Positions 36,655 through 57,697 of a stretch of 64,000 bases of DNA are shown one piece after another (within the stretch, counting starts at the first letter, position 1; each line of letters begins with the position of its first letter). A program made the translations under genes and the position numbers. Source of the DNA: an uncultured bacterium (lineage in GTDB: Bacteria; Patescibacteriota; Minisyncoccia; Phycocordibacterales; DATDWN01); NCBI GenBank assembly GCA_963727715.1, contig CAVSGX010000004.1, positions 8,455 to 72,454 on the forward strand. The letters run 5' to 3'. The notes under the pieces were generated by a model that was given only the letters and a program-made list of their open reading frames with translations, searched no databases and was not told the origin of the DNA.

Positions 36655-38508
36655 TCAATGCTGTTCAGGTTTATTTTTATCAATTGTGTCGTCCACATTA
36701 AGCACTTTACGCAAAACCTCTTCCGGCACTTCTTTCCCCGACGCTGGCGCGGCTGGGGTTTGGACGATTTCTTTTTTAATTCCGGGTTTTATTTCCGTTT
36801 TTATTTCCGGTTTATTCATAACTTGAGACAGAGCATTTTTCAAACTGGAAATATTTTCCACTGTCGGATTTTTTTTATTTTCACTTGAATTCAGAGTAGA
36901 TAATGAAGCTGTTTGCGCAGTTGGAGGATTCTTATTTGAATCTACTGGTTTTCTCTGCGAAAAAGATTTGTTGCGCAAATCTTCGGTGGCTTTTATAAAA
37001 GCCAACTTATTAGGATCAGGGGTTGCAATTGTTGGAGTATTGTTCTGGTTGTTATATTTCTCTTTCTCACTGAAAGGCTTGTTAAAAATCGGACGATTGT
37101 CGACGCTTCGCTGAGGAGATGCCGGCGCAGATAAGGGCATAGGCGAAAAGCTGGAACGTCCTGTTCCTATATTTCCGTCGCCTTGCCCACCACCAGCCAT
37201 TTTGTCTCTTTGGGCCGATGTCCCCTCTTCATGCCATTTTTTTATTTCTGCCTCGACTTCGCCCCGTGGTCGGGTAAACTGTTTCCACGAGCTTTCCATA
37301 ACTTCTTTTTTGAATGAGACATCCGGCCTAGTAATCGGTGGCATAGTGACAGCTGAAAACGGCGCTGAAGAAACTTCATCGATCATCAATTTCAAATAAA
37401 TTTGGTATTTGCCAAGATTGACCAAATCTTCGGCGGTGAAAGTTGGAGCGAATTCTTTTTCCAAAACTTCAGCATCAAAAGCGCCGACTCGAAATGTGAC
37501 CATGGTGCCAACGTTGCCGAAAACGGCGTCGCGCACTTCCTCTTCCATTTGCTCAATGTACTGATGTGTGATGTTTAAACCTAATTTGTACTTGCGGGCT
37601 TCGGACAAAATGTCGGCAAAAGATTTGTTGGCGAAAGATTGAAACTCGTCCACATACAAATAAAAATTCGGCAGTTTGGCTAATTGCTCTTTGTTTTTGT
37701 CCGCTCGAGACATGGCCGCCAAGTATATTTTTGTGATAAGCATTGAACCAATGAGGTTGGCATTGCCCTCACCAACAAGCCCTTTGGACAAGTTGATGAG
37801 CAATATCTTTTTCTCATCCATAAAATCGCGAATGTCAAAAGATGATTTCGGCTGGCCGATTAAATTTCGGACAAGCGGGTTTGATGTGAATTGTCCGACT
37901 TTGTTTTGAATAGCCGGTGTGGCTTCGGCTGCGTATTTGTCGGTGTATTTGGCAAATTCCTCCGTCCAAAAAGTTTTGACCGATGGATCTTTGATGTTCT
38001 CCACCACTTTTTTGCGATACTCTTTGTCAGCTAACATTCGATTAACACCAAGAAGTGTGGCACCCGGATATTCCAAGAGCGCCAAAAGAGTGTTGTTTAA
38101 AATGTAAGCCATGCGAGCTGACCAAGCATCCACCCAGATTTTCTCAAACGTGGACATGAGGCCGTTGACCACCAGATGTCTTTTGTCCACACCAATATCT
38201 TCCAAGACATTGAAAGAAACTGGATGTTCCAAATCAAATGGCGCGAAATAAAGCACATCTTTGATGCGATTTTCCGGGATGTAATCCAGCAGTTTTTCGG
38301 CCATTGAACCGTGCGGATCTATGACGGCGATACCGTTGCCATTTTGAATATCCTGGATGGCCATATTTTCCAAAAGATTGGACTTGCCAACGCCGGTTTT
38401 GCCGATAACATAAACATGACGCAAGCGATCGCTTTCTTTGATACCAAAACGGATTTTTTTGTTGCGAGCGTCCGTTTCGGCAAAATATGTGATGGGGTTT
38501 GGGTCCAT
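36655..38508 (-). CDS. VirD4/TraD/TraG-like (FtsK/HerA-superfamily) P-loop ATPase with a low-complexity C-terminus
   Basis: HVYVIGKTGVGKSN Walker A, LYVDEFQSF Walker B, and the LGLNITHQY pattern of type IV coupling-protein-like ATPases. Confidence 0.6.
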   Translation of the reverse strand: MDPNPITYFAETDARNKKIRFGIKESDRLRHVYVIGKTGVGKSNLLENMAIQDIQNGNGIAVIDPHGSMAEKLLDYIPENRIKDVLYFAPFDLEHPVSFNVLEDIGVDKRHLVVNGLMSTFEKIWVDAWSARMAYILNNTLLALLEYPGATLLGVNRMLADKEYRKKVVENIKDPSVKTFWTEEFAKYTDKYAAEATPAIQNKVGQFTSNPLVRNLIGQPKSSFDIRDFMDEKKILLINLSKGLVGEGNANLIGSMLITKIYLAAMSRADKNKEQLAKLPNFYLYVDEFQSFANKSFADILSEARKYKLGLNITHQYIEQMEEEVRDAVFGNVGTMVTFRVGAFDAEVLEKEFAPTFTAEDLVNLGKYQIYLKLMIDEVSSAPFSAVTMPPITRPDVSFKKEVMESSWKQFTRPRGEVEAEIKKWHEEGTSAQRDKMAGGGQGDGNIGTGRSSFSPMPLSAPASPQRSVDNRPIFNKPFSEKEKYNNQNNTPTIATPDPNKLAFIKATEDLRNKSFSQRKPVDSNKNPPTAQTASLSTLNSSENKKNPTVENISSLKNALSQVMNKPEIKTEIKPGIKKEIVQTPAAPASGKEVPEEVLRKVLNVDDTIDKNKPEQH

Positions 38509-38594: not shown

Positions 38595-38660
38595 AAAAAT
38601 TCAAAATTCAAAAACAAAAGAAAAAACAAATCGACAAGAGACAAGCTACCTTTTTGGAAA
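38595..38660 (-). promoter_or_regulatory. Conserved 3' flank of a DGR variable repeat (copy A)
   Basis: aaaaattcaaaattcaaaaacaaaagaaaaaacaaatcgacaagagacaagctacctttttggaaa is identical to 40605-40670 and 43419-43484. Confidence 0.6.
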
Positions 38661-39650
38661 TCACAAGAACGAGCGGGAGAGGCGACCACCCAGAGGCGGA
38701 TGGGAACTGGACGGAGCATCGGCACGGACACCGAGCCGGGAACCGGCGGGGTTCCAATAGGCGCAGACGACACGAAAGGAAGATGGGGCGGTTTTGTCAG
38801 GGTTTGGCACTTTAGACCCGGGCAAAGCGGTCCAGTAGTATAGACCATCTTTCTCGTTTTTGGTGTCTATGTGCTTGCCTGTTTGTTCAAAGATTTTTCT
38901 TTGCAGGATGAGATAATCGGACAGAGTTAGAGATTGGTTCGGAGGCAAGGAGAGAAAGGTTTCAATCTTTTTGTTCAGAGTTTGTTTAAGCTCTGATTGT
39001 TGCCAGAGTTCTTGACTGTGGACTAGAACGATTCTTCTTTTTTTGTCTTCTATTACTCCTTCAAACCCGCCACCCGAGTTGAAATTGCTTCCGGTGTATG
39101 TTTCGTTGTATCCTTCCGACATTTTAGCGTTTAGGTCTGTCAGGTTTGGCAGAGTTTCCGGAATGAGCAGGATTGTGTCAAAACCGTGTTTTTCTATTTC
39201 TTCTCTGATTTGGTCAATGTTTCTTTCCCAGATGTTTTTCATCGTCTCGGAGAAGTCTTTCGGTCTGTCTATGGAGTGGGTTGTGTAAAAGGAAGTAAAG
39301 TATTCTATTTCTTTTTCAATATCTATGGTTATGGTTTCTTTCTTTTCTTCAGTGGTTGTTTTGCCGGTTTTTTCGTCTTTTGTCTCTTCGATATGTTTGT
39401 ATTCCACTTCTAGAGTTGTTGAGGATTTGCCTTCTATCTTTCTTTTGAGAGAACGGCATTGGGAGAGTGTTTCTTTGATTTTCAGGCTTAGTTCTTTCTG
39501 TTTCTCTGTATCTCCGCTCTCAATGGCTTTTAGGAGTTTATCTTTCATTTCTTCGGCCTGAGAGAGCAGGCCTTCCATTACGGTCAAGTCGGCCAGAGCT
39601 TGTTCTTTGGTTGGTGGAGAGTTTGGGATTTTGGGAGATTCGTGGGACAT
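38661..39650 (-). CDS. DGR target protein 1 (cytoplasmic, coiled-coil N-terminus, C-terminal variable CLec-like region)
   Basis: 329 aa. Identical to the 40671..41660 product except for the last 32 aa or so (VVCAYWNPAGSRLGVRADAPSSSHPPLGGRLSRSFL), which overlie the VR. Confidence 0.85.
   Translation of the reverse strand: MSHESPKIPNSPPTKEQALADLTVMEGLLSQAEEMKDKLLKAIESGDTEKQKELSLKIKETLSQCRSLKRKIEGKSSTTLEVEYKHIEETKDEKTGKTTTEEKKETITIDIEKEIEYFTSFYTTHSIDRPKDFSETMKNIWERNIDQIREEIEKHGFDTILLIPETLPNLTDLNAKMSEGYNETYTGSNFNSGGGFEGVIEDKKRRIVLVHSQELWQQSELKQTLNKKIETFLSLPPNQSLTLSDYLILQRKIFEQTGKHIDTKNEKDGLYYWTALPGSKVPNPDKTAPSSFRVVCAYWNPAGSRLGVRADAPSSSHPPLGGRLSRSFL
38664..38771 (-). repeat. DGR variable repeat VR-A
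   Basis: Aligns to the TR (43071-43177). By hand count it differs at 15 TR-adenine positions plus one non-A position (tgt>ggt). Confidence 0.85.
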
Positions 39651-39666
39651 AATGGATGGATGATAA

Positions 39667-40347
39667 TCAGTCTAATTTTATTAATTTCTTTGTCAGAACA
39701 GGAATTTCTTTTTGAAAAAAAGTTTTGACCGAATTCCAATCAGCGTCAAAAAAGATGACCGGCTCTGGATCGCTTTCGGCATCGTCAAAATAAACCATAC
39801 TTTTCAAGATATGGTGATAGTCGTGAGCCACAGACGGATACTGTCCCGGCAATCGTCTGATAATATTTTCCAGCGGTTCCACATTTTTGGCGCACCAGTA
39901 CAAATCAAAGAAATCTCTTTTTCTGCCTCTTTGCGAGCTGGCGATTATTTTCATCACGGCCACATCCGTTTTATTCAAAATTTTGACAAAACCGTATTCC
40001 AAAAATTTTTGTTTTGGAATAAAAAACGGATAAGCGATAAAACTGATTTTGGTGTCATACAATACGCCATATAAAGTGTTTGGTTCATCAATATCCGTGC
40101 TCCAATTTTCATTGCTTGCAAAACGAGATAACAGTTTCTTTGTTATAAAACTTTTTTCTGTGGTAAAAAAATCCAAATCAACAGATTTGCGATTGCCGGC
40201 CTGCAAAGCTAAGGCGGTGCCACCGGCCAGATACCAGCCTGATTCACTCAGCCATTCTTGGGTTGATAAAAAATCCAGAGCTGTTTTGGTTGATTTGGGT
40301 AAACATGAAAAGTTGATGATATTTAATTTTGAAGTGTCAGTGTCCAT
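39667..40347 (-). CDS. Nucleotidyltransferase AbiEii/AbiGii-like toxin family protein
   Basis: WYLAGGTALALQAGNRKSVDLDFFT is the family N-terminal signature. Confidence 0.65.
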   Translation of the reverse strand: MDTDTSKLNIINFSCLPKSTKTALDFLSTQEWLSESGWYLAGGTALALQAGNRKSVDLDFFTTEKSFITKKLLSRFASNENWSTDIDEPNTLYGVLYDTKISFIAYPFFIPKQKFLEYGFVKILNKTDVAVMKIIASSQRGRKRDFFDLYWCAKNVEPLENIIRRLPGQYPSVAHDYHHILKSMVYFDDAESDPEPVIFFDADWNSVKTFFQKEIPVLTKKLIKLD

Positions 40348-40547
40348 AATGCTTTTGTTCTTGGTCTCAAAGACCGTGATGCAGAAACAACTTTTCTCAA
40401 CAATGCCTTGTCATAAAAATTCCAAAGCCAGCGAACCTCATTATCCCTGCCAAAATCTAAAATTCTCTCAATTATATATTGAGCGTTTTTTTCAGTGTCA
40501 ATTCTGCTGACATCGGTGTCCCAAAACAAAGATTGTCTAAATGGCAT
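40323..40547 (-). CDS. Small partner protein of the AbiEii-like NTase (putative antitoxin-like)
   Basis: 74 aa. LFWDTDVSRIDTEKNAQYIIERILDFG pattern. Overlaps the NTase start by 25 nt, which suggests translational coupling. Confidence 0.5.
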   Translation of the reverse strand: MPFRQSLFWDTDVSRIDTEKNAQYIIERILDFGRDNEVRWLWNFYDKALLRKVVSASRSLRPRTKALWTLTLQN

Positions 40548-40670
40548 ACCTTCATTATATCAAATTTTGAGACAATATTCAACAAAAATCAAAATGCAAA
40601 AATAAAAAATTCAAAATTCAAAAACAAAAGAAAAAACAAATCGACAAGAGACAAGCTACCTTTTTGGAAA

Positions 40671-41660
40671 TCACAAGAACGAGCGGGAGAGGCGACCACC
40701 CAGAGGCGGATTGGAAATGGACGGATCATTGGCAACGACATTGAGCTGGGAACCGTCGGGGTACCAATGGGCGCAGACGACACGAAAGGAAGATGGGGCG
40801 GTTTTGTCAGGGTTTGGCACTTTAGACCCGGGCAAAGCGGTCCAGTAGTATAGACCATCTTTCTCGTTTTTGGTGTCTATGTGCTTGCCTGTTTGTTCAA
40901 AGATTTTTCTTTGCAGGATGAGATAATCGGACAGAGTTAGAGATTGGTTCGGAGGCAAGGAGAGAAAGGTTTCAATCTTTTTGTTCAGAGTTTGTTTAAG
41001 CTCTGATTGTTGCCAGAGTTCTTGACTGTGGACTAGAACGATTCTTCTTTTTTTGTCTTCTATTACTCCTTCAAACCCGCCACCCGAGTTGAAATTGCTT
41101 CCGGTGTATGTTTCGTTGTATCCTTCCGACATTTTAGCGTTTAGGTCTGTCAGGTTTGGCAGAGTTTCCGGAATGAGCAGGATTGTGTCAAAACCGTGTT
41201 TTTCTATTTCTTCTCTGATTTGGTCAATGTTTCTTTCCCAGATGTTTTTCATCGTCTCGGAGAAGTCTTTCGGTCTGTCTATGGAGTGGGTTGTGTAAAA
41301 GGAAGTAAAGTATTCTATTTCTTTTTCAATATCTATGGTTATGGTTTCTTTCTTTTCTTCAGTGGTTGTTTTGCCGGTTTTTTCGTCTTTTGTCTCTTCG
41401 ATATGTTTGTATTCCACTTCTAGAGTTGTTGAGGATTTGCCTTCTATCTTTCTTTTGAGAGAACGGCATTGGGAGAGTGTTTCTTTGATTTTCAGGCTTA
41501 GTTCTTTCTGTTTCTCTGTATCTCCGCTCTCAATGGCTTTTAGGAGTTTATCTTTCATTTCTTCGGCCTGAGAGAGCAGGCCTTCCATTACGGTCAAGTC
41601 GGCCAGAGCTTGTTCTTTGGTTGGTGGAGAGTTTGGGATTTTGGGAGATTCGTGGGACAT
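40671..41660 (-). CDS. DGR target protein 2 (paralog of target 1)
   Basis: 329 aa. C-terminus VVCAHWYPDGSQLNVVANDPSISNPPLGGRLSRSFL. Confidence 0.85.
   Translation of the reverse strand: MSHESPKIPNSPPTKEQALADLTVMEGLLSQAEEMKDKLLKAIESGDTEKQKELSLKIKETLSQCRSLKRKIEGKSSTTLEVEYKHIEETKDEKTGKTTTEEKKETITIDIEKEIEYFTSFYTTHSIDRPKDFSETMKNIWERNIDQIREEIEKHGFDTILLIPETLPNLTDLNAKMSEGYNETYTGSNFNSGGGFEGVIEDKKRRIVLVHSQELWQQSELKQTLNKKIETFLSLPPNQSLTLSDYLILQRKIFEQTGKHIDTKNEKDGLYYWTALPGSKVPNPDKTAPSSFRVVCAHWYPDGSQLNVVANDPSISNPPLGGRLSRSFL
40674..40781 (-). repeat. DGR variable repeat VR-B
   Basis: Differs from the TR at 9 adenine positions (hand count) plus the same tgt>ggt change. Confidence 0.85.
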
Positions 41661-41672
41661 GGAAGTATTCTA

Positions 41673-42700
41673 TCATGTTATAACAATATCATTCAATATT
41701 GAAGTCAGTTTGTTTTTTAATCCAAATGAATCGCAGTGTTTCAGTAAAGCAAAATAAGACTGAAAATTATTCTTGTTCATTCTTTCAAAAATTTTTTGCT
41801 TGGTTTTATCTCTCAATAAAAGACAATCTGGCAAAGTCAGAGATCCTAGAAAATCTACTCCCCATTTTAATTTTCTGATTGAGATTTTATCATCCGGGAT
41901 TTGCAGAAACAGTTTTGCCATAAATTTTTTAATTTCAACCAAACAAAACCCCAATCTTTTTTTATTTTTATTTACCAAAATAAAATCGTCGTTGTATCTT
42001 ATATAAAATCTGGCGTTTAATTTTTTCTTCACAAAATGGTCAAAATCGTTCAAATAAATGTTGGCGAAAATCTGGCTGGTGATGTTGCCGAGCGGGATGC
42101 TTTTGTCAGAGCCATGAAGCGAGCAAAAACTTTCTACTATTTTCCCCACTTCCAAAAAAATATTTTCATTTTTCACTTTTCTTTTGATAAATTTCAGCAG
42201 TAGGCGGTGGTTGACACTTTCAAAGTATTTTTTGACATCGCATTTTAAAATAAAAACATCCCCATTTTTTCTTTTCGCCAATCCATTGAAATATTGGAGA
42301 GTTTTGACGGCTTTATGCGTTCCTTTTCCGTCTCTGGATGAATAACGGCTTTATGCGTTCCTTTTCCGTCTCTGGATGAATATGAGTCGGCAATAAATGC
42401 CGGCTCAAATAGATTTTTCAAATAATCGGATATTATTTGATGAATAATTCTATCTTTAACTTCAGCTTTGTGAATATTTCTTTTCTTGTTGTCAGTAACA
42501 ATAAAATGCGAATACCCGCCATGGCGGTAAGTTTTGTTTTTCAGATCTCTGTGCAAATCAAAAATATTGTCTTCCAAATGTCTTTCAAAAATCATTACAT
42601 CCATCTTGGAGGACTTTCCCCGCCGAAATTTCCGCCAAGCTGAAAATATATTATCAAGACTGAATAATTCGTTATAATTTTTATGGAACAAGACGCTCAT
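41673..42700 (-). pseudogene. DGR reverse transcriptase, frame broken by a 38-bp tandem duplication
   Basis: Motifs SYSSRDGKGTHKAV, FILKCDVKKYFESVNH, IPLGNITSQIFANIYLN (DGR-type GxxxSQ) and YIRYNDDFILV (YxDD). Deleting one copy of 42307-42344 restores a 329-codon ORF. Confidence 0.85.
42307..42382. repeat. Perfect 38-bp tandem duplication inside the RT gene
   Basis: acggctttatgcgttccttttccgtctctggatgaata occurs twice in a row (42307-42344 and 42345-42382). Confidence 0.9.
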
Positions 42701-42718
42701 AAAATTGAAAAATTGGAA

Positions 42719-43057
42719 ATGCCTATTATGGCCAAACTCTTTATCATTTACGAACTGACGCACAAGCTTATTTTCAAATTGCCGAAATTTGAAAGATACA
42801 CTTTGGGTGAAAAAATTGAAAATATCATCTTGGAAACGATTGAAATAATTGTCATCGCCAATGGGACGAACAAATACGAAAAAGAAAAATATTTGCTCAA
42901 AGCCAATGCCAAAGTGGAAATGCTTAAGTTGCTTTTTCGCATCGTTTTGAACTGCCAAATCATTGATTTCAAAAAATATTTGGAGGCGGAAGGGTTGCTT
43001 CAAGAAATCGGCAAAATGGCGCAAGGTTGGATAAAATACACCAGAAACGCAAAATAG
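42719..43057 (+). CDS. avd: DGR accessory variability determinant (four-helix-bundle, 23S rRNA-IVS-protein family)
   Basis: MPIMAKLFIIYELTHKLIFKLPKFERYTLGEKIENIILETIEIIVIA...LLQEIGKMAQGWIKY matches the Avd/four-helix-bundle pattern. It is on the opposite strand to the RT, TR and targets. The start could be 42683, 42719 or 42728. Confidence 0.7.
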   Translation: MPIMAKLFIIYELTHKLIFKLPKFERYTLGEKIENIILETIEIIVIANGTNKYEKEKYLLKANAKVEMLKLLFRIVLNCQIIDFKKYLEAEGLLQEIGKMAQGWIKYTRNAK

Positions 43058-43070
43058 CTTTTGTATAAAG

Positions 43071-43177
43071 CAAGAACGGCGGGAGAGGCGACAACCCAGA
43101 TTCGGATTGGAATTGGACGGATCATTGGCATTGACATTGAGCTGGGAATTGTCGGGGTTCCAATTGGCGCAGACGAC
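43071..43177 (-). repeat. DGR template repeat (TR)
   Basis: Sense (minus) strand: gtcgtctgcgcc AAT tgg AAC ccc gAc AAT tcc cAg ctc AAT gtc AAT gcc AAT gAt ccg tcc AAT tcc AAT ccg AAT ctgggttgtcgcctctcccgc. It holds 21 adenines, mostly in AAT codons. All three VRs vary at these positions. Confidence 0.9.
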
Positions 43178-43484: not shown

Positions 43485-45512
43485 TCACAAGAACGAGCGG
43501 GAGAGGCGACAACCCAGATTCGGATAGGAATAGGACGGATCATCGGCACCGACAACGAGCTGGGAATAGCCGGGGTCCCAATGGGCGCAGACGACGCGGA
43601 AACCGCCGGATGGATTTTTGACTGTTGAGCCGGGTAGCCATGTCCAACCGTCTTCATCCAAATGTTTGCCTGTTTGTTCAAAATATTGCTTTTGATACAA
43701 CAAATAATCTGTCAGAGACATTTTTTCACCTTGCGATATAAACTCCTCGGCTTTTTTATTCAGAGTTTTCTTCAGTTCCGAATGGTCTTTCAGATTTTGA
43801 GCGCTGTTTTTATGAATCAAAACGATTCTTCTTTTTTTGTCTTCTATTACTCCTTCAAACCCGCCACCCGAGTCGAAATTGCTTCCGGTGTATGTTTCGT
43901 TGTATCCTTCTGACATTTTTTTATGTATATCGGTTATGGTCAATCCTCCGGGCACAAGCAAAATCTCATCAAAACCATATTTTTCTACTTCTTGTTTTAT
44001 CTCGTCATAATTGTTCACCCATATATCCGCCATTTCTTCCGCAAATGATTCCGTCAATTCAATTTCGTGAGCTTTATAAAAAAGAAGAGAATCCTCAAGT
44101 TTTTTGTCAAAATTTATTTCTATTTTCTCTTTCTTTTCTTTGCCTTTCTCGTCCACGATTTTGTGTTCGGCAGAAACCACCGGTTCAAACGAACTGCCGG
44201 TCAATTCTCTTCTTTTACTTCTGAAAAATTTCTCCAAATCGGCTATTTCATTTTCAATCTTCTCTATCCCGTCCGCCGGACTTTCGGTTTTACCACCTTC
44301 AGGAATTGCCTCAGCAGACGCTTCTTTTTCTTCTTCGTTATTTTTCTTTTTTCTTTTCGTTCCTTTGCGTTTGGAATCTTTGGTTTCTATTTTGACTTCA
44401 ACCAATCGGATGATTTCTTCCAATTTTGTTCTGTCTTCGGCGCTTTCCAGTCTGTTGACATAATAATATTTCAGGGCTTTTTGAAAAGTTTCGCTGATGT
44501 CGCCATTGTAAAAACGCAAAACAAAATTTCTGACCCGCCTCGGCTCTTCGCGGTCGTCATAGGTGAAAACTTGTGGTTGATCTTCGGCGATTTGCCTGTT
44601 TTTCAAAAGTTCTTTGGCGGTTTTGTGAAATTCCTTGTATTTTTCCAAAATTTCGGCAATGCCTGGAATTTCCGAAAGTTGTTCCTGCGTCAAACCACCG
44701 GCGCCGGATAAAAACATATCATCAGGCAATTCGGCGGTTTTCTTTTCCAAACCGTTCTCTAAACCAAACAATGCACCAGTCGCTTGCTTAAAGGTCTCTT
44801 CCGGTAATTCATTTGGCATTTTTTTATAAACCCATCTGCGAAGCTGAGCTGGATCAAGTGGCTTTCTATCCAAATAACCGGCTCCCGGAGGATTCATAAA
44901 AGCGATGATTTTGGTTTTTTGTTTAGAAACTTTAACTGTTTCCGAAGCGTCTTCTGACAAAATGACATCGCTATCACGCTCCAGAGAATCCAAAACTTCA
45001 TGCAAACGAATCAAAATGTTCGGCGCCGATGAGTTGAATTCGTCCAAAACAATAATTTTGACTTTACCGTCTTCCTGTCGTAAACCGCTAGTTACTTTTC
45101 CGTCGGCGAAAATGTATTCCGGGTCTTCCGCATTATTTTTACGAGGATTTGGTATATATCGGCCCATCAAATCCTCCACATCCGTGGCACCGTTTAAGTT
45201 TATGTAATGAACTTCGTAGCCGAGCTCACTGGCCATTTTTCGCACCGTGGTGGTCTTACCAAAAGATGTTCCGCTTTCCACGGCAATAGGGTCGCCCATG
45301 GAAAACGACACGGCGATGTCACGTTGCAGTGGCAGAGCCACTTCGGTATCATTGGTGTAGTCCTTGTAATTTTCTCTTCTTGGCACAAATTGGCCATTTC
45401 TGTTTTTAGCTTTTTCCAGAGTAACACCCATATAAGAAACACTCCCGTCAGTTTCCATTATCGGCTCCAGTTTTGCTTCCGGATTGTTAAATTGTCCTTC
45501 TGGTGTTTTCAT
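43485..45512 (-). CDS. DGR target protein 3: AAA+ (MoxR/AAA_5-like) ATPase fused to the target C-terminal module
   Basis: 675 aa. GTSFGKTTTV Walker A, IIVLDEFNS Walker B. The C-terminal 230 aa or so is homologous to targets 1/2 (KMSEGYNETYTGSNF.SGGGFEGVIEDKKRRIVL). It ends VVCAHWDPGYSQLVVGADDPSYSYPNLGCRLSRSFL. Confidence 0.85.
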   Translation of the reverse strand: MKTPEGQFNNPEAKLEPIMETDGSVSYMGVTLEKAKNRNGQFVPRRENYKDYTNDTEVALPLQRDIAVSFSMGDPIAVESGTSFGKTTTVRKMASELGYEVHYINLNGATDVEDLMGRYIPNPRKNNAEDPEYIFADGKVTSGLRQEDGKVKIIVLDEFNSSAPNILIRLHEVLDSLERDSDVILSEDASETVKVSKQKTKIIAFMNPPGAGYLDRKPLDPAQLRRWVYKKMPNELPEETFKQATGALFGLENGLEKKTAELPDDMFLSGAGGLTQEQLSEIPGIAEILEKYKEFHKTAKELLKNRQIAEDQPQVFTYDDREEPRRVRNFVLRFYNGDISETFQKALKYYYVNRLESAEDRTKLEEIIRLVEVKIETKDSKRKGTKRKKKNNEEEKEASAEAIPEGGKTESPADGIEKIENEIADLEKFFRSKRRELTGSSFEPVVSAEHKIVDEKGKEKKEKIEINFDKKLEDSLLFYKAHEIELTESFAEEMADIWVNNYDEIKQEVEKYGFDEILLVPGGLTITDIHKKMSEGYNETYTGSNFDSGGGFEGVIEDKKRRIVLIHKNSAQNLKDHSELKKTLNKKAEEFISQGEKMSLTDYLLYQKQYFEQTGKHLDEDGWTWLPGSTVKNPSGGFRVVCAHWDPGYSQLVVGADDPSYSYPNLGCRLSRSFL
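43488..43595 (-). repeat. DGR variable repeat VR-C
   Basis: Differs from the TR at 11 positions, all TR adenines (hand count). Confidence 0.9.
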
Positions 45513-45515
45513 ATT

Positions 45516-45917
45516 TTATGAACGATAAACCGGCCCAACTTTGTCTATAATTTCAAAACTTCTTTCTTTCAATTTCGCCAAAACGCTTTCCGTAGCGACC
45601 AAAACCAAAACCTGACTTTGATAATCAGGTGAAAAAACTTTTGATTCATTTTTTTCTTTATCAAAAATCTCAACTTGACCTGTCGGATACTGCGCGACAA
45701 AATCATATAAGTCCTTCGGTAGATTTTCGTCCAAAACCAGATACATTTTTTGAAAACCAAAAAAATCAAAAACATTTTTTGATGTTTGAAATCCACTATC
45801 TTCAAAAAACTTGATAAAACCACCCATCTCGCTTTCATCCCGCGCCAAAACAAGTCCGACATCTTTTTGTCCTTTCAAGATATCCAGAAACTCATGCAGA
45901 CCTTCGTTTTTGTTCAT
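45516..45917 (-). CDS. Hypothetical protein between the vWA and AAA genes
   Basis: 133 aa, no recognisable motif. Tight spacing (stop at 45516, next start at 45512) suggests an operon. Confidence 0.5.
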   Translation of the reverse strand: MNKNEGLHEFLDILKGQKDVGLVLARDESEMGGFIKFFEDSGFQTSKNVFDFFGFQKMYLVLDENLPKDLYDFVAQYPTGQVEIFDKEKNESKVFSPDYQSQVLVLVATESVLAKLKERSFEIIDKVGPVYRS

Positions 45918-45956
45918 AGTTGTATTCTAACACTAACCGGAAAATTATCAAATTTT

Positions 45957-48242
45957 TCAACCAACAACTTCTTTCTCAAGTATTTCTGATATATCTTTTA
46001 TTATTTTGTCCACTTTTATATTATCGGATTTTAGCGGGTAATAAATAAGCTTTACACCGCCGGCTTTTTCGATTTTGCCTTTAATTTTTTGAAAATCATA
46101 TTTTGAGCCGGGATGTTTAGTGGATTCAGCTGGTCTGTCATCCGAAAAAACAATCATTATTTTGTTGTCTGTTTTTTGTTTTGCAAGTCTTGCCGAAGCG
46201 GTTTCCATAGCCCAACCAATGTCGGTTTCATTATGCTCATTTCCGCAATTTTTGCAACAACTATCTTCAACCTCTTTAAACATTCCTCCCATGTGTTCCC
46301 TGATTTTTTTTGACATTGGCTCTCCAAATTTTTGATACTCGTATATATCATCATTAAAACCGTTAATTTCAACGTTCAATCCTAGTTTGTTTAATGCTTC
46401 AGCCAGCACAACTTTTGCTTTGAAATCTTCTTCAATTTTTTTACGCATAGAACCAGATAAATCGTTTAGAATGGAAATTGAATATTCTTTTTCATCTGGT
46501 TTTTCTCTTTTTTGCCAAGCGTTGCTTTCTATTGGCGAAATGCGTCTGGCTTTTTCCTGAATCCTTGTTTTTATATCAATTCTTTTGCCTATTCTAAAGC
46601 CCTTTTTCCATCTTGTGGTTTGGGTGTCAACAAATATCTGTCTTAGTTTATTTTCCAATTCATCAATCAGCGACGAAACTTCTCGTCGGTGCTTTTCATA
46701 AATATTTTCGTCTTTATTGACTTCTCTTTTTAATCTTTCTTTGTATATTCTCAATCCTTCCAAATCAAGAGGTTCTTTTCTTAAAGTTCCGGTTCTGACC
46801 GGAGCGCCGCCTTGATTTTGATTGTTTATTTCAACCCCTGGCAAATTTTCCGGCGGTTCTGGATTTTTTCTTTCTGCTTTTTCCTCCGGATTTTCAGTCA
46901 ATTTGCCTTCCATTTCTTCGTTTAGTTTGTCTTCAAATTCCTTCAGCGCTTTTTCGGCTCTGTCGGCCAGCTCTTTTTTCACATCTTCCGGAAGCGAGTC
47001 GACATAATCCCTTATTTTTTGTTTTATTTCGTCGGAAAGGTCGTTCAGGTTTATTGTCCTCGCACCGATATCGTCTAGCGTCTGTGGTTGTTCATTGCCG
47101 GTGTTGTCTTCGTGTGGAGTCGGCTTGTTTGTGATTTTATCTTCTCCCTGCCCACCTGTTGACATTGGTTTGATTTTTTCTTTCTCTTTTTTTGCTTCAT
47201 CAATAGCTTTGTCAATAGCATTTTCCAACGTTTTCTTTTCTTCTTCGGTTAATTTGTCTTCCAAATCTTTTGGCAGTTTTGATTTTTTTTCATTTTTTTT
47301 ATCTTCACTTTCTCCTTCCTGATTTCCGTTATCTTTTTGTCCATCACCACCTTCCTTCCCATTTTCTCTTTCTTGCTCTTTTTTCATTTCTTCCATCATC
47401 TTTTTCATCACATCTTTCAACACTTCTTCCATTTTCTCATCCTCTTTATCTGCTTCAACCAGTTTTTTAAATTCTGGCCAAATTTCTTCCAGATTTATTT
47501 CATACGACACTTTGGCGTATTCTTTTATTTTTTCTTCACTTTCATCCGCTTCCTCTCGCGACGGATATCGCCACCAAGAATCCTGAGCTGATTTCAGTGT
47601 GGCTAAAACAACAGCTTTGACTTCTTCGGGCAAATCTTCCGAAATTTCAAAATTCTGTCCCTGTTTTTCACGAAACCATTGTCTAATATATTCATACCCC
47701 GCTTGCACAAAACGCGGTTGGAAACCCAGTTTTTCGGTAGCTTCTTTCTTTTCTTTTTCTCTTTTGGCAAAAAAATCATCCCAAGCAAATTTTATATTTT
47801 CATCGTATTTCGGATAACTCTCGGAAACAAAGTTGTCGTTTCTGGGATCTTCAATGAAATTCATCATAGCTGAAAAGCCCGGTTGTCGCCATGTTTCAAT
47901 CGGAATAAAATCTGTTCTGGAAACTCGTCTATGTCCTCCTTCGTGACAAATTAAATATCTCAATAATTCAATTGGCTCCGTCAGCAGAGTTTTCGGGTCA
48001 ACTCTGATGACATTTTTTTGAAAATCCCAATGCCAGCCAGCGCCTGGTTGGTTTAGTTCTATCGGCATCTCAAAATCTTTGCCAATAAAATAAGCCAGAG
48101 ATGACAAAATATTTTTCTTGCGCAGAATTTCTTTTTGTTCTTCTTCGTTAAATCGCTTCAAGATTTCCTCTTCTGGATTTTGCCGGAGAGAATCGTAGGT
48201 TTGTTCGTTTTGATTGAATTTTGGTCCTTCCATAATTTGCAA
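45957..48242 (-). CDS. vWA-domain protein with N-terminal HExxH metallopeptidase-like domain (DUF2201-like MoxR partner)
   Basis: 761 aa. LICHEGGHRR (HExxH), a long E/K-rich linker, and a C-terminal vWA with MIDAS LNDLSGSM and ..IMIVFSDD. Confidence 0.7.
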   Translation of the reverse strand: MQIMEGPKFNQNEQTYDSLRQNPEEEILKRFNEEEQKEILRKKNILSSLAYFIGKDFEMPIELNQPGAGWHWDFQKNVIRVDPKTLLTEPIELLRYLICHEGGHRRVSRTDFIPIETWRQPGFSAMMNFIEDPRNDNFVSESYPKYDENIKFAWDDFFAKREKEKKEATEKLGFQPRFVQAGYEYIRQWFREKQGQNFEISEDLPEEVKAVVLATLKSAQDSWWRYPSREEADESEEKIKEYAKVSYEINLEEIWPEFKKLVEADKEDEKMEEVLKDVMKKMMEEMKKEQERENGKEGGDGQKDNGNQEGESEDKKNEKKSKLPKDLEDKLTEEEKKTLENAIDKAIDEAKKEKEKIKPMSTGGQGEDKITNKPTPHEDNTGNEQPQTLDDIGARTINLNDLSDEIKQKIRDYVDSLPEDVKKELADRAEKALKEFEDKLNEEMEGKLTENPEEKAERKNPEPPENLPGVEINNQNQGGAPVRTGTLRKEPLDLEGLRIYKERLKREVNKDENIYEKHRREVSSLIDELENKLRQIFVDTQTTRWKKGFRIGKRIDIKTRIQEKARRISPIESNAWQKREKPDEKEYSISILNDLSGSMRKKIEEDFKAKVVLAEALNKLGLNVEINGFNDDIYEYQKFGEPMSKKIREHMGGMFKEVEDSCCKNCGNEHNETDIGWAMETASARLAKQKTDNKIMIVFSDDRPAESTKHPGSKYDFQKIKGKIEKAGGVKLIYYPLKSDNIKVDKIIKDISEILEKEVVG

Positions 48243-49971: not shown

Positions 49972-50763
49972 CTAGACCGCGGCCGGCTCCTCAACTTCGG
50001 CGTCGTCGCCCGTCCAGCCGGCTCTCTCCAGGGCCGTTGCCATGATGGCAGTGCCATTGGGACCCGCTGGGTAACTCGCGTCTTCCTGGGCGACCGCCCC
50101 CGGCGAAGTGAATTTGCTGTCCGGGAATGGCTTCTTGTGACCGCCGCCACGTTGGTTGCTGGACGAATTCGGCAGGTGGTATTTGCCCTTGTTGTGAACG
50201 CTGTCCACCAGGCCCCACAGACTGTCGTCCGATTCCATCCGGTCGGCGTAAGCCAACTTGAGGAAACCGGCGATGTTCTTGAATTCATCTTCGCCGGCGC
50301 CGAGACCGAGAAGAGCGGCCAGAAGTCCCTGAACGGCGTAGAAGAAGTCTTCCGTGTCGCCGTGCGCCTTGGTCCATTCCGGCGCCTGCCAGGTCGGTTT
50401 CGCGAAGTCGTCCGAGAGTAGTCGATGGAGATAGATATCTCCGATTTCCTGGCGGTCGGTCAGCCTGATGAACTCCGGAATCGCCCCGACCCACAAACGG
50501 TTCGGGAACTTCGTGACGAATCTCACGGCAGCATCGACGCCCGCCGGGCACTCGATGGCCGCGAAGATCGTCTCAGTGCTCGTCATCACATCGGCCAACC
50601 TGACTGTGCCGGCGACGAGCCGGTCAAGGATAGAAACAGCCTCGACCGAGCGCCTCTCCCGATGTCGGAGGCTAGTAGCCTCCAAGGTCTCCTTGACAGC
50701 TTCATTTGGAGGCGGCATGACAGTGGCAGCCGCCTTAATCCTGCGGAGCAAATTCAATCCCAT
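49972..50763 (-). CDS. Hypothetical protein encoded in a high-GC segment
   Basis: 263 aa. Upstream SD ggaggagaagagg. One 60-nt line (50041-50100) hand-counts 40 G+C, against roughly 40 percent elsewhere. Several overlapping shadow ORFs are typical of high GC. Confidence 0.6.
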   Translation of the reverse strand: MGLNLLRRIKAAATVMPPPNEAVKETLEATSLRHRERRSVEAVSILDRLVAGTVRLADVMTSTETIFAAIECPAGVDAAVRFVTKFPNRLWVGAIPEFIRLTDRQEIGDIYLHRLLSDDFAKPTWQAPEWTKAHGDTEDFFYAVQGLLAALLGLGAGEDEFKNIAGFLKLAYADRMESDDSLWGLVDSVHNKGKYHLPNSSSNQRGGGHKKPFPDSKFTSPGAVAQEDASYPAGPNGTAIMATALERAGWTGDDAEVEEPAAV

Positions 50764-50985: not shown

Positions 50986-51513
50986 CTATTGCTTTTTATA
51001 CAACTTTTCCTTCACATGACTGTAGACTTCATCGCTCAATCGAAACTCTCCCATAAGATACGAGGCGATTTCCTTGGCGAATCTGACCATGGCCGGCCGC
51101 TCGAGATCCCAATCTGTGAAGGTGTGACAATTTGGATTTCTCTTACCGTCAGCGTCAAGAGTAACATCAACGAATGCTACATTTCTACAGAGAGAAAAAA
51201 TGAAATCGGTGCCGTAGAAATAATCCATCGGCGTACCGAAGGCAGTCAAAAGCCTGAGATGACGACGCAGTCTTTTTGGCAAATGCTGTTTGACTTCGAC
51301 AAACACTTGCCAGAAGAAAGCGTTGTTTTCTTTCAAAGCATTCTGATCGGCATTGCGAGCTAGGACTAAATTAATTGTCTCCACCATAGCGGTGGGGAAA
51401 TCAAAACGTTGGCTGTCTGGCCCATATGCCACCCAGCCGGTATCTACGGAAGAAAAACCCCCACAAAACCTTTCAAAATCATATCCGGTTCGAAATGACT
51501 GTCTCGTTTGCAC
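50986..51513 (-). CDS. Hypothetical protein (second gene of the compositionally atypical island)
   Basis: 175 aa, intermediate GC, no recognisable motif. Confidence 0.5.
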   Translation of the reverse strand: MQTRQSFRTGYDFERFCGGFSSVDTGWVAYGPDSQRFDFPTAMVETINLVLARNADQNALKENNAFFWQVFVEVKQHLPKRLRRHLRLLTAFGTPMDYFYGTDFIFSLCRNVAFVDVTLDADGKRNPNCHTFTDWDLERPAMVRFAKEIASYLMGEFRLSDEVYSHVKEKLYKKQ

Positions 51514-53281: not shown

Positions 53282-54296
53282 CTTTGAAGTAGGACAGTTA
53301 GAATTAATGCATTAGTCGAAAATTAATTTTAATTGTCATATGAAAAACAAATATCATCATTTGTCTTTTGAAGAGAGGTTTTGTATTGAAAAGATGTATT
53401 GCGCCGGTTCGGCCATTCGCAAAATTGCCGAATTTCTCGGTCGGAGTGTCAACACTGTGAGCAGAGAAATACAAAAACACAGTGTTAATGGGGTGTATGA
53501 AGCGGAAAAAGCCAAGCAGAAAGTTTCAATGAAAAGATGGCGAGCCAAACAGCAGTGTCTGAAAGTGGCGCTTGACCCGTTTCTCTGTCGATTCGTGGTG
53601 GAACGATTAACCAAGCCGTATCATTGGTCGCCGAAGCAGATTAGCGGGTATCTTGAATGTGAAATGGGTATCATCTGCTCGGCCAAAGCCATATACAAAT
53701 TTGCCGAGTCGAGAGGTCTAAACCACCTGCTTTTTTGGGGTTGGAACAATCACAAGGGTGGGAGAAAACGAAATCATTGGAAGCACATTCAGGATGGCAG
53801 GAAGTATATTGATGTCAGACCGGAGAGAAAAGGTCTAGGACACATTGAGCTCGATTTCATCGTTTCCAAAGACAGTTCGTGGGTACTTTTGGTTGCTGTG
53901 GATTGGCAAGCCAAAAGAACATGGGTCAGGAAACTGCCCAACAGAAAACGCGACACTATTCGTGCCGCGCTTTCCCGTCTGTTCCATGGTGTTGAATTGA
54001 AGAGCATCACCACAGACAACGATATTGCATTCACCTGTTGGAAAGAGTTGGAAACTCTCCTGCAAGTGCCAATCTATTTTACACATCCATACCATTCTTG
54101 GGAAAAAGGTCTGGTGGAAAACACCAACAGATGGATCAGATGTTTTGTGCCTAAACGAAGAGATATTGAGTCAGTCACTGAGGAAGAATTGCAAGAAATA
54201 CATTCCTTCCTAAACAACCGACCGAGAGAAGTGATTGGCTTCCGCGCGCCAATGAGTTATTATTCAAACATTAGTTCTGTCCTACTTGAGGGGTAA
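53281..54296 (+). mobile_element. IS30-family insertion sequence
   Basis: Transposase ORF plus imperfect terminal inverted repeats. Left: ..gaagtaggacagttagaattaatg (53286 onward). Right reverse complement: ..caagtaggacagaactaatg (ending about 54293). Confidence 0.75.
53340..54296 (+). CDS. IS30-family transposase
   Basis: 318 aa. N-terminal HTH (HLSFEERFCIEKMYCAGSAIRKIAEFLGRSVNTVSREI) and a DDE core (..ELDFIV..TTDNDIAF..PYHSWEKGLVENTN). Confidence 0.9.
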   Translation: MKNKYHHLSFEERFCIEKMYCAGSAIRKIAEFLGRSVNTVSREIQKHSVNGVYEAEKAKQKVSMKRWRAKQQCLKVALDPFLCRFVVERLTKPYHWSPKQISGYLECEMGIICSAKAIYKFAESRGLNHLLFWGWNNHKGGRKRNHWKHIQDGRKYIDVRPERKGLGHIELDFIVSKDSSWVLLVAVDWQAKRTWVRKLPNRKRDTIRAALSRLFHGVELKSITTDNDIAFTCWKELETLLQVPIYFTHPYHSWEKGLVENTNRWIRCFVPKRRDIESVTEEELQEIHSFLNNRPREVIGFRAPMSYYSNISSVLLEG

Positions 54297-55590: not shown

Positions 55591-56087
55591 CCAAAAATTA
55601 GTGCTGGATCTCCCAGGGTCATTTATATTTCTGTTCCAAACATCCGAATCGAGATTTTCGATAAGATTTATCGTGTGCTTCCTTCTGACTCACCGCAGAA
55701 GTCGCACATCTCTTTTTTTTGATTCGGCTGCTCTTTGCTACTAGGATCCTTCAGTCCAGTCATTGCTGATTGTGGACCTACCCGTTCGCTATTTTCACAC
55801 TCCTGTGAAAAGTTGGATTTGAACCAACTAGATATATAAACTGCCTGGCGCATTTTATTCTGAGTACAAGACTTGAGAACGTATTCACCGCGGTATGTCT
55901 GACCCGCGATTACTAGCAATTCCAACTTCATGGGGTCGAGTTTCAGCCCCCAATCTGAACTGGGGCGACTTTTCTAAGGATTGGCTCAGGGTTACCCCGT
56001 CGCAACCTGTTGTAGTCGCCATTGTATTATGTGTGTAGCCCAAGGTATCAAAGGGACATGCTGATCTGGCGTCATCCTCGCCTTCCT

Positions 56088-56197
56088 CCCAGCTCCAGTT
56101 GCGCAAGATGAACGAACTCGGTTAAGACCGAATACGGACATCGATGTTTGCACAGAGAGACATCTACTTATGATGTTCTTGTGCAACTGGAGCTGGG
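56088..56197 (-). other. Expanded helix-40 hairpin of 16S (about 110 nt)
   Basis: cccagctccagttgcgcaaga (56088-56108) pairs with tcttgtgcaactggagctggg (56177-56197). This replaces the short CCAGU-GAUA-AACUGG helix of E. coli. Confidence 0.65.
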
Positions 56198-56425
56198 CAG
56201 TCTCGCCTGATACTTATAACAGACAACGAGGGTTGCGTTCGTTACCCCACTTAAGGGAACAATTCAAATCACGAACTGACGACGACCATGCATCACCTGC
56301 CTAACTGTCCTTGTGGGACCGCAAACGTTTCTGCTTGCATTCAGTTAGGTTTCAAACCTTGGTAAGATTCTTCGTTTATCATCGAATTAAACCACATAAT
56401 CCACTGCTTGTGCAAGTCCCCGTCT

Positions 56426-56457
<32 letters not shown>

Positions 56458-56641
56458 ACCCAGGCGCTTGACTTAACGCGTTAGCTACGCCACGCAGAGG
56501 GTCGATACTCCGCATAGCTAGTCAAGATCGTTTAGGGCGTGGACTACTGGGGTCTTAATGTTACTTCAAAATTTTGGGAAATTTTGAGGCACAACATTTC
56601 TGTTGTACTCTGCATGTTGCCATGCAGTTCGGACTATATCT

Positions 56642-57403
56642 TTATCTGTATGTATTCCACTTAGCTTTTTTCTTTTCATATTCTGCTATTATGACAGATT
56701 CTGAAAAATTACTAAGAGAAACCATTTCAGATATCCAGCGTTCTTGAAATTGAGAGTTTTTATATAGAAGAATTGCTTTGGATAACATGCTCGATACTGG
56801 TATGTATGGCAGTATGATACGCAAGAATTTTTTTAATTCTTCTTGTGACCTAATCCATAACCGCCAGTATTGTTCTTGCTTCCCATCTTGCTTACGCCCG
56901 ACGGGGGCAACAATGGCACGAACATCCCAAACAACTTTAAGATAGCGAGCTAGCATTTCGACTGATTGTTTTGAAAAACCATCAGTACAAAACACACCTT
57001 TTCTGGCGCCGTAACCAATAAGCGAACCGTCATCACACCACCAAACGGCGAGTGATAACGCTGTCATTTGATTAAGCCACCTACGCTCTATAAGCAATTT
57101 ATTTTGTTTGTGAGTTAAATGATGAAGTTCTGTAAGAGATGAAGTTCGCCTACTGGCAAATCTCCATTTTTTGTTCTTACTGTATCCATCAGGTTCCTGC
57201 ACAAACACACTGCTATCTCCTGCTATCTCTTTGAGAGCTTGCGCTTTCCATAAGAGATAATCTTTCTGCATTTCCGAATGACGAATTTGTAAATTCGCAT
57301 TGAAATAATTTTTTTGGATTTTTAGCGAGCCGTCTCCAAGGATTGAACCGAAGATAATAGCTTTCGCTTCATCCGACAAAGGCACATATTTCGTATCATG
57401 CAT
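56642..57403 (-). CDS. LAGLIDADG homing endonuclease (double-motif)
   Basis: 253 aa. IIFGSILGDGSL and LAVWWCDDGSL motifs. Confidence 0.85.
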   Translation of the reverse strand: MHDTKYVPLSDEAKAIIFGSILGDGSLKIQKNYFNANLQIRHSEMQKDYLLWKAQALKEIAGDSSVFVQEPDGYSKNKKWRFASRRTSSLTELHHLTHKQNKLLIERRWLNQMTALSLAVWWCDDGSLIGYGARKGVFCTDGFSKQSVEMLARYLKVVWDVRAIVAPVGRKQDGKQEQYWRLWIRSQEELKKFLRIILPYIPVSSMLSKAILLYKNSQFQERWISEMVSLSNFSESVIIAEYEKKKAKWNTYR

Positions 57404-57509
57404 ATAATTTTAAGTTAATTGCACGACGACAGAATAGCACCAACTATCTTACTCAATTTCATAGTCTCTACGGGGTTTCTAGCACTAATTTTTGGAGTCA
57501 AGCTTTGAC

Positions 57510-57538
57510 TTGACAAGATTCATTTTATGATTTAACAT
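57510..57538 (+). promoter_or_regulatory. Promoter-like signal in E2
   Basis: TTGACA (57510-57515), 17 nt, TAACAT (57533-57538). The -35 box overlaps the hairpin gtcaag..cttgac. Confidence 0.4.
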
Positions 57539-57559
57539 CAATTCCAGGAGATTAACTCG

Positions 57560-57679
57560 ATGGAATTTATTATGATATTGATCTGTTTAGGAGTTTTTTG
57601 TTTGATCACAGATATGATGATAACTGTTGCTATTGATATCTGTGAATGGATCGATCATTACCTGCACCGGCTTTTATAG
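57560..57679 (+). CDS. 39-aa hydrophobic peptide (type-I-toxin-like), candidate
   Basis: AGGAG (57546-57550), 9 nt, then ATG. MEFIMILICLGVFCLITDMMITVAIDICEWIDHYLHRLL, TAG stop. Confidence 0.4.
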   Translation: MEFIMILICLGVFCLITDMMITVAIDICEWIDHYLHRLL

Positions 57680-57697
57680 CGGTGCAGTTTTCTTTTT
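57662..57697 (+). terminator. Intrinsic terminator of the E2 cassette
   Basis: ctgcaccg..cggtgcag stem overlapping the stop codon, then ttttcttttt. Confidence 0.55.

Follow-up and report, generated by a model that had tools for sequence, protein, structure and literature searches.

A hypervariable, retroelement-diversified domain ends the putative AAA+ ATPase of a conserved three-gene module in bacteria that belong to the Candidate Phyla Radiation (CPR). Here we describe this module in a 64,000-nt stretch of contig CAVSGX010000004.1 (assembly GCA_963727715.1, positions 8,455-72,454), which is called the window below and whose own positions serve as coordinates. The ATPase gene is preceded by a gene for a small protein and by a gene for a partner with a zincin-like domain and a von Willebrand factor A (vWA) domain, and its 3' end is a variable repeat (VR) of a diversity-generating retroelement (DGR). 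The fusion of such an ATPase to a domain of C-type-lectin fold (CLec) is itself already known, and the window protein, judging by its sequence, joins the published CPR AAA-CLec family. What is added here is the membership of this fusion, as one of three subunits, in a conserved AAA+/MIDAS/zincin-like module (MIDAS, metal ion-dependent adhesion site) whose DGR layout is fixed.

The three-gene module and its retroelement

The three genes are packed on the minus strand exactly as the initial annotation of this DNA had laid them out (761, 133 and 675 aa), with gaps of 39 nt between the vWA and small-protein genes and 3 nt between the small-protein and AAA+ genes, and the four motifs that it had quoted (GTSFGKTT, IIVLDEFN, HEGGH and DLSGSM) are all present. 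The genes and their parts are as follows.

45957-48242, minus: vWA/zincin-like partner gene, member of the triad upstream of the AAA+ gene; the TTG start gives 761 aa, with a CobT_C match
47433-48155, minus: minigluzincin-like N-domain of the partner (aa ~30-270), holding the HEGGH and IEDPR motifs
47931-47945, minus: HEGGH motif (aa 100-104) of the N-domain
47841-47855, minus: IEDPR glutamate motif of the N-domain
46686-47432, minus: charged linker of ~250 aa (42% E+K+D), joining the zincin-like and vWA domains
45960-46685, minus: vWA domain with MIDAS motif DLSGS (aa 594-598, at 46449-46463) and distal D701
45516-45917, minus: gene for the small orphan protein (133 aa), in which the motif YDFxxQYPTGQ is conserved
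43485-45512, minus: AAA+ protein gene, 675 aa
44358-45512, minus: AAA+ module (aa 1-385), related to AAA_5 and midasin
45249-45272, minus: Walker A motif GTSFGKTT (aa 81-88)
45033-45056, minus: Walker B motif IIVLDEFN (aa 153-160)
43485-44192, minus: C-terminal ligand-binding module (aa 441-675, stop codon included), predicted divergent C-type-lectin/FGE fold

In the Pfam search of the 675-aa protein, AAA_5 reached 46 bits (E = 5.4e-12; cutoff 22), and a clade-7 AAA+ profile covers the P-loop core with Walker A and B, as in the broad MoxR clade. AAA_3, the family of MoxR proper, gave no match, and at E values up to 0.01 only AAA_5 and a sub-threshold AAA_14 were found. By sequence, the ATPase module is closest among solved structures to midasin's AAA modules (2e-24), NorQ being a distant second (0.012), and midasin was the sole relative found when a profile of the family was compared with solved structures. 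We therefore place the ATPase in the midasin/CbbQ-NorQ branch (AAA_5) of the broad MoxR clade; the 'MoxR-type AAA+' of the initial annotation is right as to AAA+ and wrong if MoxR proper is meant. Residues G85, K86, T87, D157 and E158 are invariant in the ATPase family alignment, which also contains a strongly conserved insert-like stretch (PNPxK...EYIFADGKVTSGLRQE).

According to structural models, the C-terminal ~235 aa of this protein would fold as a divergent domain of the C-type-lectin/formylglycine-generating enzyme (FGE) type, the fold that had been suspected there. Residues 467-675 (209 aa) share 56-57% identity with both of two stand-alone 329-aa DGR targets encoded nearby (E ~1e-78), which bears out their proposed homology, and the repeat VR-C lies at the C-terminus of the lectin-fold domain, where DGR targets carry their variable repeat.

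For the partner protein the likelier start is the ATG at 48233 (758 aa), not the TTG at 48242, because orthologues begin 'ME…'. Its vWA domain matches Pfam CobT_C (E = 1.4e-6; 28.6 bits, cutoff 21), and a profile of 44 orthologues retrieved CobT (1.4e-17), the MIDAS domain of midasin (2e-10) and NorD (2e-5) from PDB. Linker and vWA domain together align with the C-terminal region and MIDAS of midasin (profile positions 277-606 to chain positions 4372-4716). Residues D594, S598 and D701 are invariant among the orthologues, and a vWA with the complete MIDAS motif DxSxS...T...D stands beside the ATPase, as it does in the vWA partners of MoxR-class ATPases. Both HExxH and DxSxS are kept in 55 of 56 orthologues. 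With AAA_5 and CobT_C above their cutoffs, the AAA+ and vWA assignments, whose failure in profile searches would have spoken against the initial annotation, were upheld.

The N-domain of the partner matched no Pfam family in the window protein, nor in the 44 orthologues even at E values up to 1. The initial annotation had pointed to 'DUF2201/VWA' for this protein: the vWA part was confirmed, and DUF2201 (PF09967, vWA-like, and PF13203, putative metallopeptidase) was rejected, as neither profile matched the window protein or the N-domains of its orthologues in the same searches. Within the IEDPR motif all 44 orthologues keep E131 and R134, and H100, E101, H104 and D132 are nearly invariant among them; in the alignment of database matches H100, E101, H104, D132 and R134 are all invariant. 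The top structural matches of a model built from this smaller alignment are minigluzincin-like, and projannalysin, proabylysin and selecase are the proteins that the HEGGH...E domain resembles most. We regard the N-domain as a probable, not a proven, minimal gluzincin with an HExxH...E site.

The 133-aa protein, put down as an unknown in the initial annotation, found no match in Pfam, NCBIfam, PADLOC, PHROGs or PDB, the last searched with a 45-sequence profile. Almost every related locus has an orthologue of it, placed after the vWA gene and before the AAA+ gene.

Downstream of the triad lies the retroelement. A 99-nt repeat is present in four copies in the window, namely the template repeat (TR) and three VRs, which are arranged with the other retroelement genes as follows.

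43497-43595, minus: VR-C, which codes for the C-terminal ~33 residues of the AAA+ protein
43079-43177, minus: TR, ~300 nt past the AAA+ stop codon, serving all three VRs
42683-43057, plus: avd, between TR and the reverse transcriptase gene
41673-42640, minus: DGR reverse transcriptase (RT) gene, split into two frames
40671-41660, minus: stand-alone target B, 329 aa, with VR-B at 40683-40781
38661-39650, minus: stand-alone target A, 329 aa, with VR-A at 38673-38771

VR-C differs from TR at 11 positions, all 11 of them on TR adenines, as expected of the variable repeat that had been recognised there; 15 of 16 differences fall on TR adenines in VR-A, and 9 of 10 in VR-B. Because 21% of the TR is A, the chance of the VR-C pattern is ~0.21^11, or ~4e-8. 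Eight of the nine AAY codons of the TR are recoded in VR-C. The avd product matches bAvd (1.4e-17; 64.5 bits, cutoff 40) and the RT matches RVT_1 (9.8e-15). By the adenine bias of its TR/VR pairs, by Avd and by the VR in a lectin-fold C-terminus, the locus is a DGR, and its RT is interrupted. The frameshift is caused by a perfect 38-nt tandem duplication at 42307-42382 (TATTCATCCAGAGACGGAAAAGGAACGCATAAAGCCGT twice), which repeats the codons for YSSRDGKGTHKAV; either the gene was inactivated very recently or the duplication is an artefact of the assembly. When aligned in two frames, the RT is 53-61% identical to the intact 343-aa orthologue of a related locus (L001).

Since avd is inverted between TR and RT, a transcript running from TR to RT would traverse it antisense. 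This antisense position is kept in essentially all related cassettes (L001-L066). A promoter-like site (TTATCA-16-TATAAT, 42651-42678) lies just upstream of avd, and neither the sequence downstream of the VRs nor that between the AAA+ stop codon and TR yielded a GC-rich hairpin or terminator.

Targets A and B stem from a recent duplication with a spacing of 2010 nt (38595-41660) and are identical over the 990-nt gene and ~60 nt past the stop codon, save for 12 nt, all at TR-adenine sites of the VR. As the two copies diverged only at such sites after a fresh duplication, we conclude that the retroelement was recently active. Between the targets lies a gene for an AbiEii-type nucleotidyltransferase toxin (39667-40347), with no AbiEi antitoxin gene evident nearby.

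The 19-residue Kyte-Doolittle maximum stays below 0.9 for the proteins of the locus, as against 2.71 for the adjacent membrane-anchored DUF4015 protein, and none has a hydrophobic segment, in line with the lack of signal peptides noted earlier. The three proteins of the triad are soluble by this measure and probably cytoplasmic. This bears on a role as an extracellular adhesin, in which the AAA-CLec protein or the 329-aa targets would be exported non-classically and attach to particles or host cells. Surface or binding proteins make up the majority of the cellular DGR targets characterised so far, reviews propose host interaction or attachment for CPR DGRs, and a VirD4/TraD-like type IV coupling ATPase (617 aa; 36655-38508, minus) adjoins the stand-alone targets. 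We nevertheless hold such export to be very unlikely: a signal peptide or hydrophobic segment is found in none of the proteins, the ATPase and its MIDAS partner require cytoplasmic ATP, and the coupling ATPase is not conserved by the cassette in related loci.

Conservation and natural variation of the cassette

The 675-aa protein has 411 database relatives, with source names, where given, of Patescibacteria, Magasanikbacteria or Zambryskibacteria. Their first ~385 residues are 55-73% identical, while their C-termini form several unrelated-looking classes that all end like DGR VRs. A scan of one genome per species yielded 60 loci, 51 of which had enough upstream sequence to judge the gene order. 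Across the 60 loci the ATPase module is 45-73% identical, and the median pairwise identity of the ATPase core is 68% (27 loci). The labels of these loci are mostly CPR (Paceibacteria, Zambryskibacteria, Doudnabacteria, Falkowbacteria, Gottesmanbacteria, Levyibacteriota, Peregrinibacteria/Peribacteria, Berkelbacteria, Dojkabacteria and others); a few metagenome-assembled genomes bear non-CPR source labels.

The vWA gene, the small gene and the AAA_5 gene follow one another on the same strand in 50 of the 51 evaluable loci, and the sole exception has the vWA gene and no detectable small gene. The initial annotation had called for a survey of AAA_5-VR fusions with vWA partners and would have been undermined by genes syntenic in no other genome; synteny proved nearly constant. 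TR, inverted avd and RT follow the triad in most loci with downstream sequence. For 29 loci the downstream TR corresponds to the final ~115 nt of the ATPase gene, and TR adenines account for 464 of the 479 mismatches.

At least six classes of VR-bearing C-terminal module, plus some C-termini without a VR, are joined to the same conserved ATPase, and Pfam scans of the alternative modules in family members found no known domain. On sequence grounds such an array fits a swappable recognition head. The VR type of the window (…LGCRLSRSFL) is a minority (3 of 60 loci) and is accompanied by extra stand-alone targets.

Natural variants differ where the retroelement would act. Proteins P0003 and P0004 (693 aa) are otherwise identical and have all 13 of their differences in the VR, within the last 45 residues; the same holds for all 12 differences between P0010 and P0016 (673 aa). 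Tandem pairs of small and AAA+ genes stand behind a single vWA gene in two loci (L013, 9971-14724; L057, 9965-14359), and in the former the VRs of both AAA+ genes match one TR, with 13 of 14 and 15 of 15 mismatches on TR adenines.

About ten loci contain the triad without a DGR within ~10 kb (L014, L015, L016, L034, L063, L019, L024, L033, L055 and L062). Some of these keep VR-like C-termini, which may be fossils or may be targeted in trans. The ATPase of L019 (1159 aa) ends in an unrelated long helical-repeat region, and that of L024 (453 aa) has no C-terminal module. The combination of N-domain and vWA reaches further, to 425 cluster representatives. Two more distant arrangements were also seen, namely a DGR-free trio of a distant vWA relative, a 152-aa protein and a 531-aa protein with the divergent P-loop GVPGASKT (L068, 8001-12588), and a rearranged cassette in which inverted avd is followed by RT and then by a distant vWA relative (L067, 108-3878).

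The ATPase, vWA protein, small protein and RT show correlated divergences (rho 0.53-0.75). This agrees with a cassette inherited as a unit, but a common phylogeny would by itself produce the same correlation. The cassette occupies different genomic sites, elsewhere among housekeeping genes (mreB, aspS, mraZ). Joint inheritance and varied location might also be expected if the triad were a passenger or helper of the retroelement rather than its beneficiary, for instance aiding cDNA synthesis, retrohoming or mobility of the cassette. We give this hardly any credence: with the VR placed within its gene, the ATPase is itself the target; triads without DGR exist; RT, Avd and TR suffice for known DGRs; and no nucleic-acid-binding domain was detected.

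A phage origin was likewise rejected, as tblastn of the ATPase module gave 0 matches in 50,697 GenBank phage records and the window, which holds 16S rRNA, secDF and pyruvate kinase genes, is chromosomal. Only three loci were found among the 2.9 million contigs of IMG/VR, each with the same full cassette.

Other features of the window

The 16S rRNA gene (55812-58592, minus) is split into two parts (55812-56668 and 57762-58592) by an insertion of ~1.1 kb, which encodes a LAGLIDADG homing endonuclease (open reading frame 56642-57403, 5e-32). Interruption of 16S rRNA genes by LAGLIDADG elements is a typical CPR feature. The segment 49700-51600 has a GC content of ~0.50, compared with ~0.39 around it, and may be foreign DNA; its reading frames at 49972-50763 and 50986-51513 have no Pfam match, and an IS30-like transposase gene (HTH_38 and rve) lies nearby (53340-54296). 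Several direct repeats of 96-178 nt with 88-91% identity occupy positions 1-940 at the left edge of the window and are probably part of a repetitive gene that runs off it.

Relation to known systems and proposed function

Doré et al. (2024), citing Paul et al. (2017), name the AAA-CLec fusion as the commonest CPR DGR target architecture, suggest that its ATPase transduces signals sensed by the C-terminus, and place CPR RTs in a separate DGR clade. Matches to a P-loop NTPase and a 'Midasin domain' have been given for one class of CPR targets (category g1, UVR4; Wu et al. 2018), CPR targets are typically without recognisable domains in the survey of Roux et al., and DGRs make up ~80% of the reverse transcriptases in CPR bacteria (PMC8632793). 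The window protein has the marks of CPR AAA-CLec targets, with a midasin-like AAA_5 ATPase upstream of a C-terminal VR in one polypeptide of a CPR genome, linkage to a DGR and no membrane signals. The vWA/zincin and small-protein partners and the inverted avd of these targets are undescribed in the searchable literature, which excluded the text of Paul et al. (2017).

Among characterised machines, the triad shares an AAA_5/MoxR-type ATPase and a MIDAS-bearing partner with NorQ-NorD, CbbQ-CbbO, CobS-CobT and RavA-ViaA, which have no counterpart to its hypervariable ATPase domain, its zincin-like domain or its small third subunit. In the NorQD structure a finger of the vWA protein enters the AAA+ pore, and the ATPase remodels the linker of its partner (PMC13036017). 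The NCBIfam NorQ and NorD models found no match in the triad, and genes for client enzymes (NOR, Rubisco, CobN) are not linked to it. An identity with the CobS-CobT chelatase was rejected, as the NCBIfam CobS and CobT models gave no match, the CobS/CobT-like PHROG matches were weak and no CobN-like gene was present in related flanks. Midasin (Rea1/Mdn1), the best solved match of the ATPase, is also among the best for the vWA/MIDAS domain and the region preceding it, and like the vWA partner it has a long charged linker to the MIDAS domain. It is a single chain of ~4,700-4,900 residues with six fused AAA modules and acts in ribosome maturation, whereas the triad has one AAA module per chain, a MIDAS on a separate protein, and the DGR and zincin-like domain as additions.

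The triad could accordingly be read as a classical MoxR-vWA chaperone of assembly or maturation (metal insertion, complex remodelling), with the C-terminal module as an adaptor for clients and its diversification secondary. The closest solved relatives (midasin, CobT, NorD) all belong to chaperone or remodelling systems, the ATPase core is strongly conserved, and triads without a DGR or without a VR occur in ~10 genomes. A fixed client needs no hypervariable adaptor, however; population variants differ solely in the VR, no candidate client gene is conserved beside the triad in the flanks of related loci, and a conserved HExxH domain is foreign to the known chaperone partners. We judge a role of this kind to be quite unlikely.

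Closer in outline are the MoxR-vWA-VMAP conflict systems of Kaur et al. (2020), in which a DGR-diversified FGS/CLec domain was reported on the vWA protein. In them as in the triad, a single operon encodes a MoxR-clade AAA+ protein together with a vWA protein, a DGR-diversified lectin-fold domain is the proposed recognition element, and the predicted location is the cytoplasm. In the triad, however, the variable domain is fused to the ATPase and a zincin-like domain on the vWA protein takes the place of the VMAP protein and of the TIR, trypsin or caspase effector or adaptor domains. The VMAP hosts are multicellular cyanobacteria and proteobacteria and those of the triad CPR bacteria, which Kaur et al. 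omitted from their multicellularity statistics. The triad was rejected as a VMAP ternary system: none of its three proteins contains a VMAP domain (one orthologue gave an insignificant VMAP-M5 E value of 0.2), and its third gene encodes the unrelated 133-aa orphan. The STAND/NACHT NTPase-CLec targets known from multicellular bacteria (Doré et al. 2024), proposed as cytoplasmic antigen sensors, resemble the AAA+ protein in joining an NTPase to a C-terminal DGR-diversified CLec domain; they differ in having a STAND NTPase with the N-terminal effector in the same chain, whereas the triad has an AAA+ of clade 7 and a separate vWA/zincin-like protein. Catalogued anti-phage systems (PADLOC-DB 2.0) were also rejected, as the ATPase matched only mad8 (2.5e-5), a generic AAA_5 hit, and the vWA protein, small protein and targets matched nothing.

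We tentatively propose that the module is a DGR-programmed conflict sensor or targeted remodeller that works in the cytoplasm and not as a surface adhesin, a proposal that could well turn out to be wrong. The intracellular sensing or conflict role favoured by the initial annotation is plausible, and it agrees with the suggestion of Doré et al. (2024) on the AAA-CLec targets of CPR bacteria. By analogy with NorQ-NorD, CbbQ-CbbO, CobS-CobT and midasin, the ATPase would assemble into a hexamer, engage a single vWA partner and pull on the linker of that partner. Six lectin-fold heads would then offer a hypervariable, multivalent surface to a changing intracellular macromolecule, most likely a protein of a phage or another invader. 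ATP hydrolysis and the MIDAS adaptor would couple ligand capture to the zincin-like domain, with the ATP-driven pull on the long charged linker as the connection between them, and the captured ligand would be cleaved or remodelled, or a proteolytic response activated. The simplest candidate for an intracellular ligand that keeps changing is a protein of an invader, and for this reason a conflict role is our leading reading.

Several points weigh against the conflict role. The weak and generic mad8 match is the only defence profile found, and no toxic effector (TIR, nuclease or caspase-like) was recognised at the locus, unlike in the VMAP and STAND conflict systems. The ATPase core, at its median identity of 68%, is unusually conserved for an arms-race protein; the DGR-free triads imply a core function independent of hypermutation; and the RT of the window itself carries a frameshift. 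The lack of a signal peptide may still be compatible with a non-classical export route in CPR bacteria, and the complex, its stoichiometry and the peptidase activity are points that we infer.

The anatomy of the triad is also compatible with a regulatory sensor outside immunity, whose variable heads would bind a changing set of macromolecules, host-derived or environmental, that get into the cytoplasm of episymbiotic CPR cells, and which would act as a physiological switch, for example by proteolytic control of a regulator. The missing link to a toxic effector or a known defence profile, the position of the cassette amid housekeeping genes in other genomes and the host-interaction role suggested for CPR DGRs all point in this direction. 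We found no evidence for ligand import, however, and no linked transcription-factor or signalling output domain, and the scale of hypervariation (nine AAY codons) is more typical of arms-race recognition, so that a regulatory sensor appears unlikely to us.

A bolder form of the conflict proposal makes the triad the main beneficiary of CPR DGRs, as an antibody-like intracellular machine that the retroelement can reprogramme: six lectin heads on an AAA+ ring would capture invader proteins, and the MIDAS adaptor with its metallopeptidase would remodel or cleave them or trigger a proteolytic response. We consider this doubtful in its full form. If it were true, it would amount to anticipatory immunity in bacteria that are largely without CRISPR, and the AAA/vWA pair would be a close free-standing prokaryotic counterpart of the AAA-MIDAS mechanism of midasin.

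So far the AAA-CLec architecture of CPR targets has been noted in passing. The near-constant triad, its soluble components and variants that differ only in the VR together turn the 'AAA-fused target' into a concrete biochemical hypothesis, which is accessible with recombinant proteins and without culture of CPR bacteria. If that hypothesis is true, a large part of the bacterial tree would use hypermutation for intracellular recognition coupled to ATP-driven remodelling or proteolysis, and not for surface adhesion.

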